Source of the DNA: an uncultured archaeon
GTDB taxonomy: Archaea > Micrarchaeota > Micrarchaeia > Micrarchaeales > CABMGC01
NCBI GenBank assembly: GCA_963704435.1
Contig: OY969902.1
Span: 630,001 to 662,000, forward strand
DNA length: 32,000 nt
Direction of reading: 5' to 3'
The position numbers were made by a program, and so were the translations under genes. How positions within the stretch are numbered: the first letter of the stretch is position 1; each line of letters opens with the position of its first letter. A model generated the notes under the pieces. It saw only the letters and a program-made list of their open reading frames with translations. It searched no databases and was not told the origin of the DNA. Shown piece by piece: positions 11,630 through 18,132 of this stretch.

Positions 11630-11965
11630 TCAGTTTTTGGGGCTGGCGGAGGCGCTCTTTACCATGCTCTCGCACTTCTCCACGAGCTTTATGACCTCCT
11701 TGAGCTTCGGGTTTATCCCGTAGCCGAGGTCGTACCCATGCTCGGTCCTTATGTGGGTCGGCTGGAGCACGTTCAGGTTCATCGAGAGGTTCCTGAGCGT
11801 TATTATGAGCGTCTTTCGGGTGAAGCTCTTCCCAAGGACAGCGTACAGCTCCCTCGTGGTCCTGGGGGACTTCGCCATCAGCAGCTTCAGGACGGCGAAA
11901 TTGGGCCTGCTCATCAGTTTCCTGAGCATCCAGATTTCGTCCTCCCCCTTCTCCTTCTTCGCCAT
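11630..11965 (-). CDS. Small winged-helix DNA-binding protein (putative transcription regulator)
   Basis: The 111-aa sequence ...NFAVLKLLMAKSPRTTRELYAVLGKSFTRKTLIITLRNL... follows an ArsR/PadR-like wHTH pattern. It is divergent from the pilus operon, and a tttatata box lies ~27 nt upstream (complement of 11989-11996). Confidence 0.6.
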   Translation of the reverse strand: MAKKEKGEDEIWMLRKLMSRPNFAVLKLLMAKSPRTTRELYAVLGKSFTRKTLIITLRNLSMNLNVLQPTHIRTEHGYDLGYGINPKLKEVIKLVEKCESMVKSASASPKN

Positions 11966-12048
11966 GTTTCATATTTTCTACGATACATTATATAAACATA
12001 TTCAATCTGTACGGCAGGCCATGATGTCATACCAAGATAAAACGCGCG

Positions 12049-12064
12049 GCGCAGCGCGCTGCGC
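12049..12064. promoter_or_regulatory. 16-bp perfect GC palindrome (gcgcagcgcgctgcgc) between the two divergent TATA boxes
   Basis: This is the only GC-rich element in the otherwise A/T-rich 11966-12109 intergenic region. It lies between the wHTH TATA (11989-11996) and the ATPase TATA (12077-12086), so it is a candidate operator. Confidence 0.35.
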
Positions 12065-12109
12065 GCCCGCAGCAAGGTATAATAAGTTTCTGTTGCATTA
12101 AACTACAAT

Positions 12110-13642
12110 ATGTTTTACTTAGATAAAAGATTATCTACTTTAGTAAATAGAATATCTCCAGCTCGCAGGCCCGTGGAAGAACCGCGCGCGGAGTCGCGGA
12201 TTGGATTCAGCATCGAGACGCCCGGCGCACTCGAAGACGTCGAGCGCATCGGTGGGACGATTCCCCGCTCGATAGCCCGGTCGGGATCGGATTTCATCTA
12301 CCTTCTCGGAAGCGGGATGAAGGGCATCGGTCCCCTGGAATCGCGCCAAATGTCCTTGGCGAAGTCATCCGTAATAGAAGAGCTGTCAAAGGGGACGGAG
12401 GACGTGGGAATGGCCTCATTCAGAAGGGCAAGAGAAATCGCAGCGCGCGAGATTCGCCCGCATCTGGATGGGGAGCGTGCGGACTACCTCTCTTATCTCG
12501 TGGCGCACGACACCGTCGGCTACGGCCCCATCAGCCTGCTCCTGGAAGACAAGGCAAACCTCGAGGAGATAGAGGTGAACTCGCCTTCGAACCCCATAAG
12601 CGTTTACCACGTCAAGTACGGCAGATGCCCGACGAACATCCGGTTCTCGAGCGAGTCGAGCTTCAGGCACAGCATAAACAAGCTCATATGCGACACGGAC
12701 AAGGAGCTCGGTGAGGACTCGCCCATAGTCGATGCGCAGGTGGCGGACGCCAGGATCCACGCGCAGCTGAAGCCGTACGCGCTCAGCGGCGCCGTCGCTT
12801 CGATAAGGCTAGGCCGCGGAAAGACCGTAGGCCTGGATTATATCATAAACAAGGGCACCGCTACCCCGGACCTGCTCGCCTACGTGTGGCTCGCCATGGA
12901 CTCGGGAAGGAACATCGTAATCGCCGGATCCCCTGCTAGCGGCAAGACGACCCTGCTCAGTGCGCTATTCTCTTTCATCCCGCGCTTCGAGAAGTCGGTG
13001 ACAATAGAGGAGGATATAAACGAGCTGAAGGCCAGAATGGAGATAACGAACACCATAGAGCTGTACGGCTCGCGCTACGGGGGAGTCACTACGAGGGAGC
13101 AGGTGATAAACGCGTTGAGGCTGAGGCCCAGCAGGCTCATTGTGGGCGAGGTCCGCGGCGAGGAGACGAGGGAGCTCTTCGCCAGCGCGAACCTGGGCAT
13201 ACCCTTCATAACGACCATGCACAGCAGCGCGGGCGGGATGGACCTGATAAAGAAGCTGCTCATAAGGCCCATGGGCGTCGAGAGCAGGTCCCTTAGCATG
13301 CTGGACGTCGCGCTCTACATGCGCCACGCGGACATCTCGAGAAGGGTGCTCAGCGACGTGTTCGAGTACAGGTGGCTCAGCAGGGCCGAGACCGACAAGA
13401 CGGATACGGAAGTGGGTGACGGGGACGCGGTGGAGATAGCCAGCATAGTGAGCGGAGGCAGGCTCGACACGGGCGCGCTGCAAGGGTCTAAGGTGGTCGA
13501 CGCGTACTCCAGGAAGAGCGGACTGTCCAAGAGGCTGGTGCTCAAGGAGTTCGACAAGAGGTCGTCATTCCTCAAGGAAGCGTGCGCTAGCGGCGCCACC
13601 TCCGGAGGGATAGCCGAGAAGGTGCAGCACTATGGTTGGTGA
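12110..13642 (+). CDS. Type IV pilus/archaellum-family secretion ATPase (VirB11/FlaI/EpdL/TadA-like)
   Basis: Walker A NIVIAGSPASGKTTLLSALF, RPSRLIVGEVRGEETRELF (Asp/Walker B region) and PFITTMHS (His box). A gtataataag box lies 26-33 nt upstream of the ATG. Confidence 0.9.
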   Translation: MFYLDKRLSTLVNRISPARRPVEEPRAESRIGFSIETPGALEDVERIGGTIPRSIARSGSDFIYLLGSGMKGIGPLESRQMSLAKSSVIEELSKGTEDVGMASFRRAREIAAREIRPHLDGERADYLSYLVAHDTVGYGPISLLLEDKANLEEIEVNSPSNPISVYHVKYGRCPTNIRFSSESSFRHSINKLICDTDKELGEDSPIVDAQVADARIHAQLKPYALSGAVASIRLGRGKTVGLDYIINKGTATPDLLAYVWLAMDSGRNIVIAGSPASGKTTLLSALFSFIPRFEKSVTIEEDINELKARMEITNTIELYGSRYGGVTTREQVINALRLRPSRLIVGEVRGEETRELFASANLGIPFITTMHSSAGGMDLIKKLLIRPMGVESRSLSMLDVALYMRHADISRRVLSDVFEYRWLSRAETDKTDTEVGDGDAVEIASIVSGGRLDTGALQGSKVVDAYSRKSGLSKRLVLKEFDKRSSFLKEACASGATSGGIAEKVQHYGW

Positions 13643-16244: not shown

Positions 16245-17499
16245 ATTTCTGCTGATAGCGAGCGCGGTAGCCGCCCTCAGCCTGAGCGTGATTTCACTAT
16301 ACGGAAAGAACATATCGGAGCAGCGCGGACTGCTTGATGTTGTAGCAAACAGCGTGCAGCCGGATTCCGCGACTTCCTATCTCCCAGCAAGCGCCAGCGA
16401 CCCGCAGGTTCTGATGTATGTTCCAGCGAATTCCACGGTCGGCAAGAGCGCCAGCGTGCAGATCACCTTCTATGGATGCTCGTATGGCACTGCGAGCGCG
16501 GCCCTGAGTTCCACATCCGTCTCCTTTGCAAGGAATGAATCGAGCATGGCCATGTCCGACATAGCGATGCTGGCCTTCCCGTTCACCCCGATAACGCCAG
16601 GCCCTGATCCCATAGAAGTAGGCTATGTCATCACGTGCGGGAATTATACTAAGAGCAATTCAACGGACTTCCTGACTTATGCCACATCAGGTGCTGGCAT
16701 CGCACCTGCTCTTTACTCGGCTAGCATAATGAACAGGAGCGAAAAGCTGTCGTACGCTCTGGAGAATCAGGGCACTATCCTGAACTTGGACGAGTGGAGC
16801 CGATGTACAGGGCCCGCGCTATTCAACGGCCAATCTGATTTGTCGCAGTGCGGGCAAAACTCATGGGACTATATGGCGTTCTCCTCATACTGCTATTACA
16901 CTGCAGACGTATCTCTGACTGCCACCTATTGCATGGCGCCAGTCGGAACGGTGTACGATATTAGCGACACCGGGGCGAATGCGGAATACGTCTACAATTT
17001 TACGCTTTTGCTGGGTTCTCCCTACGGCACGATGCGCTCAATACTGAACTATCGCCCGAACGAATCGAACCTCACCCTAAACAACAGGACAGTCGGCAAA
17101 GTTCGCGTCGAGAGCGTCAGCAGCTCCGACTCCGTACCCGCAACGACCCTGATCAGCGATGGCAGCACCTCCTATCCCGTCAATGAGACAGCATACCTGC
17201 AATACGTTGAGGCAAGGAACGACCTATACGGCACGTTGAGCTTCTATAACTCGTCAAGCGTCACATCCGACATTCAATCGGAGATACAGCAGGTGGTCCA
17301 GGCTTTCACAAGCTCGTACGCCGAACTTACAAGCGCCGCGCCATCCGGCGCAGCGTGCAACGTTTCTGAGGGCGAGTATGTTTGCAATGCCACGCATCCT
17401 TTCACATACGTGATAGAAGTTAACGTATCGAGCGGAATGCAATCGGGCAATCAGACGCTATCCTATCTCGGGTCGGTAATAGACATATCGAACAGGTAA
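16222..17499 (+). CDS. Large class III signal peptide protein (425 aa; candidate pilus tip/adhesin)
   Basis: MRM|QASLEFLLIASAVAALSLSVISLY has Gln +1 and Glu +5. The ~400-aa extracellular region carries more than 10 Cys and about 16 NxS/T sequons. Confidence 0.7.
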   Translation: MRMQASLEFLLIASAVAALSLSVISLYGKNISEQRGLLDVVANSVQPDSATSYLPASASDPQVLMYVPANSTVGKSASVQITFYGCSYGTASAALSSTSVSFARNESSMAMSDIAMLAFPFTPITPGPDPIEVGYVITCGNYTKSNSTDFLTYATSGAGIAPALYSASIMNRSEKLSYALENQGTILNLDEWSRCTGPALFNGQSDLSQCGQNSWDYMAFSSYCYYTADVSLTATYCMAPVGTVYDISDTGANAEYVYNFTLLLGSPYGTMRSILNYRPNESNLTLNNRTVGKVRVESVSSSDSVPATTLISDGSTSYPVNETAYLQYVEARNDLYGTLSFYNSSSVTSDIQSEIQQVVQAFTSSYAELTSAAPSGAACNVSEGEYVCNATHPFTYVIEVNVSSGMQSGNQTLSYLGSVIDISNR

Positions 17500-17503
17500 T
17501 CAG

Positions 17504-17905
17504 ATGCGCGCACAGTTTGCTACGATTGAGGCCATTCTGGCGATGTTCCTAGTGCTCTCAGCAGTCTCATTCGTGTCGGTTGGAATATCACTAGGCGATA
17601 GGAATTACTATTCAGAAAGCGGAAAGCTAGTACAGAGCATAGCGATATATGATGCAGCGGATCAGATAGCCAAAAATCTCAGCGCCAACGACTGCATAGC
17701 GCTCAGCGGAGCAGGAAATAATCCCGCCTGCGCAAGGAATCTAACAGAATCGTACAAAACCGCATTCGGGCTGAGCCAATTCGAGATAGTGGCTGCGGGT
17801 TTTGCCATAGGGAATTCCACAAAAAACAGCACCACAAGCTGCTTCCCAATATTCTTCGAGTCCGCAAACGCGACGTGCGAGGTATGCTTGATAGCAAGCA
17901 GCTAG
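17504..17905 (+). CDS. Class III signal peptide pilin-like protein
   Basis: MRA|QFATIEAILAMFLVLSAVSFVSV has Gln +1 and Glu at +6. Cys pairs (NDCIALSGAGNNPAC; TSC...ATCEVC) and sequons are present. Confidence 0.6.
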   Translation: MRAQFATIEAILAMFLVLSAVSFVSVGISLGDRNYYSESGKLVQSIAIYDAADQIAKNLSANDCIALSGAGNNPACARNLTESYKTAFGLSQFEIVAAGFAIGNSTKNSTTSCFPIFFESANATCEVCLIASS

Positions 17906-17913
17906 GTGACCCT

Positions 17914-18132
17914 ATGTCATTCTACGGACTCGTAATTGTATTCGTTGCACTATGCGTGGCCTTCTATATCGGCGCCTTTGTCAGCGAGATGGCCTGCATA
18001 AGCGCGATAAACCTCGCATTTGCGAGAGGGGGATCGACGATCCTGATGATGTCCTATCTGAGCGTGGCGCGCATGGGGAATATGAGCCAAGCGTACATCA
18101 ATTACACGATTGAAAACTTACTCACAAGATAA
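17914..18132 (+). CDS. Small membrane protein, last ORF of the pilus operon
   Basis: MSFYGLVIVFVALCVAFYIGAFV... has one clear TM helix. ATG 17914 avoids overlap with the preceding gene; the track ORF starts at 17875. No recognisable motif. Confidence 0.4.
   Translation: MSFYGLVIVFVALCVAFYIGAFVSEMACISAINLAFARGGSTILMMSYLSVARMGNMSQAYINYTIENLLTR

Follow-up and report, generated by a model that had tools for sequence, protein, structure and literature searches.

Introduction

In the Epd pili of Methanococcus maripaludis, an archaeal type IV pilus (T4P), the pilins have a DUF361 domain, a leader ending in Gly, Gln at +1 and Glu at +5; the major pilin, MMP1685, is glycosylated and 62 aa long when mature, and two platform genes are essential (Nair et al., 2013; PMC3875500). 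According to the same study, Sulfolobus and Haloferax pilins have no Glu +5, and the Tyr +6 of Flp pilins is missing from those of Methanococcus. Type IV pili have been recorded across the Micrarchaeota (Vazquez-Campos et al., 2021), and Mia14 (‘Ca. Mancarchaeum acidiphilum’) has two pilus loci, with key components common to many Micrarchaea: the MIA14_0252-0260 type was assigned to a ‘euryarchaeal group’ and the other locus to the Methanococcus group (Golyshina et al., 2017, Supplementary Table 2). The pilus loci that Hamm et al. (2024) found conserved in DPANN concern cluster 2 and not Micrarchaeota. Here we analyze positions 11630-18132 of a 32-kb stretch of DNA (the window) from a Micrarchaeales (DPANN) archaeon, and conclude, with a probability of about 0.8, that this locus is a lineage-typical, complete-looking T4P operon.

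An earlier note on this DNA (the original prediction) had presented the locus as an uncharacterized surface-filament system of Epd/Tad-like type. The claim of novelty was overstated, because Golyshina et al. (2017) had already tabulated a Mia14 locus of the same layout; the operon is a member of a system type already in the literature, and not a new kind of machine. The architecture read from the DNA held up better, and we describe it below together with its conservation, its modular make-up, and its resemblance to described pili.

Results

A compact ten-gene operon with a fixed chromosomal position

Our map of open reading frames (ORFs) reproduced every ORF of the original prediction at the same coordinates. 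Ten genes occupy 12110-18132 of the plus strand, opposite a 111-aa minus-strand gene at 11630-11965. They encode one FlaI/GspE-family ATPase, two half-size platform proteins, six proteins with class III N-termini (pilins 1-4, a large 425-aa protein, and pilin 6), and one small membrane protein. Tight spacing had been claimed for all of them, with overlaps or gaps of at most 10 nt, and this is what we found: neighboring genes overlap by 8-44 nt (11, 44, 8, 8, and 23 nt) or are separated by 0-9 nt (9, 0, 4, and 8 nt). The largest overlap, 44 nt between the two platform genes, shrinks to 8 nt if the second begins at the alternative start 14368. Judged by this arrangement, the ten genes are a single transcription-unit-like block.

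The operon recurs across the lineage. A scan of one genome per GTDB species, made with very specific patterns, returned 78 loci, nearly all labeled Micrarchaeota (the other five being labeled Marsarchaeota in three cases, ‘bacterium’ in one, and ‘archaeon’ in one); four loci from first look-ups were added for iterative hidden Markov model (HMM) searches, giving 82 loci. About 50 of the 78 species genomes have the full form, consisting of the regulator-like gene on the opposite strand, the ATPase, platform halves 1 and 2, pilins 1-4, the large protein, pilin 6, and the small protein. In every case the full form occupies the same place on the chromosome, adjoining pyrB and a pyrK-like gene.

Partial forms divide the operon into two parts. 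In one subclade a short form stops after pilin 2, and in these loci pilin 2 accompanies the ATPase module. Two loci, L085 and L086, have a stand-alone block of pilin 3, pilin 4, the large protein, pilin 6, and the small protein (HMM E 1e-8 to 1e-91); their large protein is ~320 aa long and lacks an insert found at residues 62-155 of the 425-aa protein, and the TPR-AAA and RNase H genes flanking the operon of the window are also neighbors of the block in L085. Because the block can stand alone and the short forms end where they do, we regard the operon as two modules: one of motor, major pilin, and pilin 2; and a detachable minor-pilin/tip module that starts at pilin 3 and includes pilin 6 and the small membrane protein.

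An assembly ATPase distinct from the archaellum motor

The first gene of the operon (12110-13642, plus strand) encodes a 510-aa assembly ATPase of the FlaI/GspE/VirB11 superfamily. It had been read as a VirB11/FlaI-family ATPase, and it matches Pfam T2SSE (E 3.2e-18); across 21 orthologues Walker A (G273-T281), E300, G346/E347, and H371 are invariant, with Walker A, Walker B, and the His box intact. Homologues number 891 at E<=1e-10, and among the matches listed all those with an organism name are from Micrarchaeota. The presence of tRNAs with introns confirms that the source is an archaeon, and a named relative, LFW-125_1, is placed in Micrarchaeales. Searched against solved structures, the family profile scored 189.8 bits with AfGspE (2OAP; full length), the closest solved relative, followed by CpaF (143.9 bits) and FlaI (131.4 bits).

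Two observations would suit an archaellum, or a motility apparatus derived from one: FlaI is the best NCBIfam model of the ATPase (3.8e-44, 151 bits, against 7e-35 for TadA), and some orthologues carry the JGI name ‘flagellar protein FlaI’. Both NCBIfam scores, however, are far under the equivalog cut-offs, which for FlaI is 550 bits; the FlaI structures come third after AfGspE and CpaF; and the platform is split into two half-size genes in place of a single FlaJ. Mia14 is without archaellum genes, and most DPANN have lost motility (Golyshina et al., 2017). A Pfam search of the operon proteins for FlaH, FlaF/G, FlaC/D/E, FlaX, and archaellins returned none of them, so that neither adjacent FlaF/G/H genes nor an archaellum FlaI, the signs to which the original prediction had pointed as telling against a pilus, was found. 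The absent accessory genes and the place of FlaI as only the third-best solved relative rule out archaellum identity; an archaellum origin has next to no probability in our view, and by these comparisons the ATPase is not an archaellum FlaI.

Which clade of pilus ATPases it belongs to is a separate question. Makarova et al. (Figure S4) label AfGspE as clade 2 (arCOG01817), clade 1 being arCOG01819 and CpaF-like. Our comparison is indirect, being made with the solved structures of AfGspE, CpaF, and FlaI, with EpdL not among the references; moreover, a paralogous Micrarchaeota ATPase also ranks AfGspE first, with the same order of PDB entries, and the ranking is therefore unable to separate the clades. 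Because AfGspE outscores CpaF and the paralogue gives the same order, membership of the Epd clade (Makarova clade 1) is unproven.

A platform split into two half-size proteins

The next two genes encode polytopic proteins that resemble each other. Platform half 1 (13632-14375, plus strand; 247 aa) has two transmembrane segments, a cytoplasmic T2SSF-like domain, and two further transmembrane segments (at 20-57 and 187-227), and platform half 2 (14332-15021, plus strand; 229 aa, or 217 aa from 14368) has a cytoplasmic T2SSF-like domain followed by three transmembrane segments (140-221). The cytoplasmic helical domain predicted for each is of T2SSF type at the profile level only: a single-sequence Pfam scan of both proteins gave no significant match, with T2SSF at E=0.22 as the best for half 2 and nothing for half 1. 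Built from 26 orthologues, the profile of half 1 matches the cytoplasmic domains of PilC (1.3e-5) and GspF (1e-4), and the two halves are homologous to each other (hhalign probability 97.1%, E 5.5e-11). A paralogous module supplies a further comparison, as Pfam detects a canonical T2SSF domain (1e-15 to 1e-16) in its TadC-like proteins; against the full-length ones the HMM of half 1 gave 5e-41 and 1.5e-43, and that of half 2 gave 1.5e-34 and 4e-30. From the family profiles and their mutual homology, we conclude that both are half-size platform proteins, like TadB/TadC or EpdJ/EpdK.

In some Micrarchaeota a second ATPase/TadC module lies a few kb downstream of the operon (L032 9845-13111, L079 16727-17905, and L077 14409-14903, on the minus strands). 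Its TadC-like protein has a canonical T2SSF domain and, at the N-terminus, a long stretch of low complexity. The module possibly corresponds to the other pilus locus of Mia14.

Six class III N-termini

Six consecutive ORFs with class III N-termini follow the platform genes, as predicted, those of pilins 4 and 6 being variants. All six lie on the plus strand, and across 50-76 orthologues per family they keep a basic residue, then Q-x-S-x-E after the predicted cleavage site (written ‘/’), and a hydrophobic helix. When the motif is defined strictly (a basic residue followed by Q-x-[ST]-x-[ED] and a hydrophobic stretch), 4 of the 247 ORFs of the window match, and all four belong to the operon. N-glycosylation sequons are enriched in the secreted operon proteins, with 16 in the 425-aa protein versus 0 in the ATPase.

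Pilin 1 (15031-15294) has a 28-aa leader, the site RKA/QGSMEY, and a mature part of ~59 aa with the sequons NGT and NMS. It matches PF04021 (Class_IIIsignal, formerly DUF361) at E 9.5e-4, as do 19 of 26 orthologues (best 7.5e-6), and no other Pfam family was found in its orthologues at E<=0.01. The motif [KR][GA]/Q[GS]SLEY is present in 73 of 76 orthologues, whose mature length is 57-62 aa and in which the N-G-T-N-x-S double sequon is retained; the mature part is 36-73% identical between species whose ATPases are 44-71% identical. Glu +5 stands next to Tyr +6, forming a Flp-like Glu-Tyr pair. This combination of a ~59-aa mature length, high conservation, sequons, and the Glu-Tyr pair makes pilin 1 probably the major subunit, and its sequons suggest that it is glycosylated.

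The remaining N-termini vary on the same theme. Pilin 2 (15287-15664; 125 aa; MRETRA/QLSLEL, with a six-residue leader) keeps its motif in 58 of 75 orthologues, with mostly A at -1 and K/R at -2. Pilin 3 (15665-15868; 67 aa; MRL/QMSLEV) has a Q-x-S-L-E that is conserved in its orthologues and a variable -1 residue (L, A, V, S). In pilin 4 (15861-16244; 127 aa; MARMRA/LIISLDLL) Asp replaces Glu and the Gln is missing, a variant that orthologues keep as x-[LIV]-S-[LI]-D-[LM]-L, with HMM orthologues in 58 loci. Gln +1 is nearly invariant both in the pilin 3 family and in that of the 425-aa protein, the latter having I (17), L (9), M (9), A (6), or V (3) at -1. Pilin 6 (17504-17905; 133 aa; MRA/QFATIEAIL), with five sequons and five Cys, fits the strict pattern in 19 of 56 orthologues and variants of it in the rest. 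Pilin_N (PF07790) matched none of 88 pilin sequences scanned, and no Pfam family matched the pilins other than pilin 1, or the small membrane protein.

That small protein, already noted as a membrane ORF, is encoded by the last gene of the operon (17914-18132, plus strand; the final gene in 46 loci). It is a 72-aa bitopic protein beginning MSFYGLVIVF, with one N-terminal transmembrane segment; we found no charged leader, no Gln/Glu motif, and no family match in it.

A large pilin-anchored protein with a confident model

Between pilins 4 and 6 lies the gene for the 425-aa protein (16222-17499, plus strand; MRM/QASLEF), a pilin-anchored putative tip adhesin. Its family is narrow: a word-indexed homologue search reached 13 sequences only, and exhaustive HMMER raised this to 162 representatives in 1.84 billion proteins, either ~410-455 or 310-330 aa long. 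The family keeps C195, C210, C224, C237, and C379 without exception, and C388 almost always. AlphaFold2, run on a 101-sequence alignment, gave a model with a pLDDT of 90.0 and a pTM of 0.66. In this model a pilin helix (2-43) leads into a flexible linker and then an immunoglobulin (Ig)-like beta-sandwich (~62-155), which is the insert absent from the short paralogues; the remainder comprises an elongated beta domain, whose strands are very long, a hairpin of helices at 322-371, and, at the C-terminus, a further beta unit. Searches of the PDB by sequence and by family profile found no relative, and Foldseek of the pLDDT-90 model against the PDB gave generic Ig/MG-domain matches only (TM ~0.2). 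Makarova et al. describe large beta-rich class III ‘minor pilins’, a description that the 425-aa protein fits; it is probably a tip adhesin, a role that we infer.

A role beyond adhesion would be that of a tip protein that engages the host membrane: with an elongated beta architecture distantly like that of class II fusogens or fusexins, it would be delivered by the pilus to bridge or remodel this membrane when Micrarchaeota meet their hosts. The basis of this idea is weak: Fsx1 and bunyaviral Gc recur in Foldseek at TM 0.19-0.36. With an earlier model (pLDDT 76), Fsx1 matched at TMq 0.34-0.36 alongside bunyaviral Gc, and the similarity dropped with the better model, in which Fsx1 gives TMq 0.31 at a root-mean-square deviation of 11.8 Å and rank 33; on these values a fusexin-like fold is not supported. 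A global fold match (TM >= 0.5) with domains I-III and fusion loops, as expected of a class II fusogen, was not found. We consider a fusogen-like function highly improbable, and retain the tip adhesin as the probable role.

No prepilin peptidase beside the operon

The original prediction had remarked that the operon has no peptidase. This extends to the whole window, as Pfam found no Peptidase_A24 domain in any of its sizeable ORFs, and a crude screen for GxGD[K] plus transmembrane segments within 10 kb of the operon in the 82 loci likewise returned no peptidase. The only polytopic neighbors are a Yip1-like protein and a protein of six transmembrane segments that lacks the GxGD motif. The latter, at 18122-18703, was considered as a divergent peptidase and rejected: it has no GxGD and no A24 match, lies in a low-GC insert, and is absent from L001, a 70%-identity relative. 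Archaeal prepilin peptidases are usually unlinked to pilus loci. Mia14, too, has a single FlaK-like prepilin peptidase, far from both of its pilus loci (Golyshina et al., 2017). Because archaeal peptidases are usually unlinked, and that of Mia14 lies elsewhere, the missing linked peptidase is unremarkable.

A conserved divergent gene and its shared promoter region

The 111-aa gene opposite the operon (11630-11965, minus strand) was found, in divergent orientation, in 75 of 83 sources, the window counted. Its product is the most conserved protein of the locus, with 67% mean column identity and 39 invariant columns. The divergent gene of the original prediction is thus a conserved feature, but its label as a winged helix-turn-helix (wHTH) gene is less secure: Pfam and PDB profile searches gave no significant match (HTH_20 at E 0.02-0.13; PF25212 at E 0.024), and the database copies are all named ‘hypothetical’. 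A wHTH fold, and with it a putative regulatory role, is plausible but unproven.

The 144 nt between the two start codons (11966-12109) read as a divergent promoter region. A TATA-like box, TTATATAAA, lies at 11988-11996, ~23 nt from the ATG of the regulator-like gene, and TATAATAA lies at 12074-12085, 24 nt upstream of the ATPase ATG, after a purine-rich stretch resembling a TFB-recognition element. This arrangement of paired A/T boxes, the one nearer the ATPase being of GAAAGGTATA type, recurs in ~60 orthologous intergenic regions. The box-to-start spacing of ~23 nt and this recurring layout suggest divergent leaderless transcripts. A GC-rich near-palindrome, GCGCGGCGCAGCGCGCTGCGCGCCCGC, lies at 12043-12069 between the two TATA-like boxes and could be an operator; it is species-specific, its sequence not being kept in relatives, and L001 has a different GC-rich element at the same place.

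Other features of the window

Directly after the operon comes a low-GC segment (18122-20400; 0.43 versus ~0.57), which holds the protein of six transmembrane segments, an AbiEi/AbiEii toxin-antitoxin pair (18730-19979, minus strand), an intron-containing tRNA (20076-20195, minus strand), and tRNA-His. It looks like a small insertion by the tRNA genes, because in L001 the TPR-AAA gene directly follows the operon. In that relative the TPR-AAA and ribonucleotide reductase genes contain inteins (Intein_splicing plus LAGLIDADG; 15039-17530 and 3352-7113); the TPR-AAA gene of the window (20702-22168; 488 aa) is intein-free.

Two further genes encode candidate surface proteins. A 556-aa secreted protein (4488-6158) has a signal peptide, many N-x-S/T sequons, a Pro/Thr-rich C-terminus, and two internal repeats with a Cys pair each (CLFDACRNGTNF / CIENGCANGTNF); without a match in Pfam, it may be an S-layer or surface glycoprotein. 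A 332-aa protein (24423-25421), also without a Pfam match, has an N-terminal transmembrane anchor and a Ser/Thr-rich extracellular part. On either side of the latter, a response regulator (23149-24333) and a PAS-containing histidine kinase (25447-27696, minus strand) make up a two-component pair in a reduced DPANN genome. A 255-aa protein (31023-31790) matches DUF3335 / Peptidase_C39-like at 2.3e-24 and is unrelated to prepilin processing. To the signal recognition particle (SRP) RNA at 3340-3600 (minus strand), Rfam assigns the bacterial large SRP model (71.8 bits) despite the archaeal source, which is probably a clan-competition artifact or reflects a divergent DPANN SRP RNA.

Discussion

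A candidate attachment pilus

We suggest the following route from operon to filament. An unlinked A24 prepilin peptidase would trim the basic leaders to leave Gln at +1; the hexameric ATPase would dock on the heterodimeric platform and power the extraction of pilin 1 from the membrane; and glycosylated pilin 1 would polymerize, giving a thin filament of Flp/Epd-like type. A priming/tip complex would be built from the 425-aa protein and pilins 3, 4, and 6, perhaps joined by pilin 2, and would expose the disulfide-rich 425-aa protein as an adhesin. The filament may attach to host cells, to surfaces, or to the matrix of a biofilm; of the roles considered, attaching to hosts or surfaces is the likeliest. 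Thin pilus-like filaments have been seen by cryo-tomography protruding from cells of Micrarchaeon ARM-1, and filaments have been seen at the contacts between Micrarchaeon and host in M. harzensis.

The balance of subunits raises another reading, in which the operon builds a short pseudopilus, a piston like that of type II secretion systems (T2SS), Com systems, or the bindosome, and serves to secrete or expose surface proteins or to take up DNA or macromolecules from the host. Five accessory pilins to one tiny major pilin is a ratio typical of T2SS and Com; Micrarchaeota are described as relying on hosts for building blocks, with little transporter capacity; and Golyshina et al. (2017) speculated on DNA exchange via type IV pili. 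The operon gives no hint, however, of a DNA receptor, nuclease, or channel, its other pilins and small protein being without a Pfam family; thin pilus-like filaments are observed on Micrarchaeota cells; and the very high conservation of pilin 1 suits a polymerizing filament subunit. We hold a pseudopilus to be quite unlikely, and favor a filamentous attachment pilus.

Several points weigh against a canonical, filament-forming T4P. Four of the six pilins have three-residue leaders (M-K/R-x), and position -1, canonically Gly/Ala, is mostly L, I, M, or V in the families of pilin 3 and the 425-aa protein. These short leaders and -1 residues make cleavage by a canonical A24 peptidase uncertain: either the peptidase has an unusual specificity, or the pilin 3 and 425-aa subunits are uncleaved. 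The call of pilin 1 as major subunit draws solely on its size, conservation, and gene position. The contact filaments of M. harzensis were attributed to the host, and no observed filament has been tied to the operon genes in any organism.

Weighing these points, we maintain that the locus is a T4P operon of the kind typical for its lineage. Because T4P have already been reported in Micrarchaeota, current understanding is unchanged; what stands out are three details: -1 residues that depart from the canonical Gly/Ala, a minor-pilin module that can be separated from the rest, and a 425-aa protein that is confidently modeled yet has no solved relative. DPANN archaea need physical contact with their hosts, which they make through largely unknown molecules, and the operon represents a conserved surface-filament system of Micrarchaeota. 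It thereby offers concrete candidates for the existing co-cultures of Mia14, M. harzensis, and ARM-1: a ~59-aa major pilin, a separable minor-pilin module, and a 425-aa tip protein.

Comparison with known pilus systems

The likeness to the Epd system of M. maripaludis extends over several components: pilin N-termini of DUF361/PF04021 type with Gln +1 and Glu +5; a tiny sequon-bearing pilin, ~59 aa when mature versus 62 aa for MMP1685; several minor pilins of 120-160 aa and larger; and two separate platform genes, a trait that many clade-2 loci share and that is therefore not discriminating. These traits, together with the absence of Glu +5 from Haloferax and Sulfolobus pilins (PMC3875500) and the presence of two platform genes and at least five minor pilins in one locus, as described for clade 1, would be expected of a true orthologue of Epd with an EpdL/CpaF-like ATPase and an EppA-type peptidase of nine transmembrane segments encoded elsewhere. 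Against orthology, the ATPase is nearer by score to the clade-2 protein AfGspE than to CpaF-like proteins (190 versus 144 bits); none of the clade-1 companions EppA, DUF2341 adhesins, and FleN/MinD was found by Pfam among the ORFs of the window; and the Mia14 locus of the same layout was put in the ‘euryarchaeal group’ while another was put in the Methanococcus group. The present genes also form one operon, whereas those of Methanococcus are spread over at least four loci; minor-pilin leaders here are 3 aa long with a -1 residue that is often not Gly/Ala; and pilin 1, unlike Methanococcus pilins, has Tyr +6. We judge orthology with Epd unlikely. Of the original label ‘Epd/Tad-like’, the mechanistic part survives, with two half-size platform proteins and Gln +1/Glu +5 pilins; membership of the Epd clade does not follow from the scores and companions just given.

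Clade-2 T4P are exemplified by those with A. fulgidus GspE (AF0659) and Haloferax PilB3/PilB4. AfGspE is the closest solved relative of the present ATPase, in a ranking that does not separate the clades, and many clade-2 loci, like the present one, contain two tadC-like genes. Another of their components is arCOG02911, a beta-rich class III ‘minor pilin’ of large size (250-550 aa), which the 425-aa protein resembles in kind only, by description. Their PilA-type pilins (Pilin_N, without Glu +5), by contrast, were not found here.

A published counterpart is MIA14_0252-0260 of Mia14, which belongs to the same order, Micrarchaeales; its annotation runs from an ATPase and a TadC through another component and a series of class III pilins to a larger class III ‘component’ and a last pilin. 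This match is one of annotated layout alone, not of sequence, so that orthology with the Mia14 genes is inferred; the published description is a one-line annotation table, without pilin types, modules, or structures.

Bacterial Tad/Flp systems (CpaF/TadA, TadB, TadC, Flp, TadE/F, TadV) differ in having a secretin, TadZ, TadD, and TadG, which are missing here as expected for an archaeon, and in minor pilins, TadE/TadF, to which those of the operon are unrelated in sequence; pilin 1, moreover, matches PF04021. The operon shares with them a compact gene order, a split TadB/TadC-like platform, a CpaF-related ATPase (CpaF being the second-best solved relative), and a very small major pilin in which Tyr +6 follows Glu +5. 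By analogy with both systems the operon is Epd/Tad-like in mechanism, and its compact operon, split platform, and Glu-Tyr pair add a data point on the relation between archaeal Epd-like and bacterial Tad/Flp pili.

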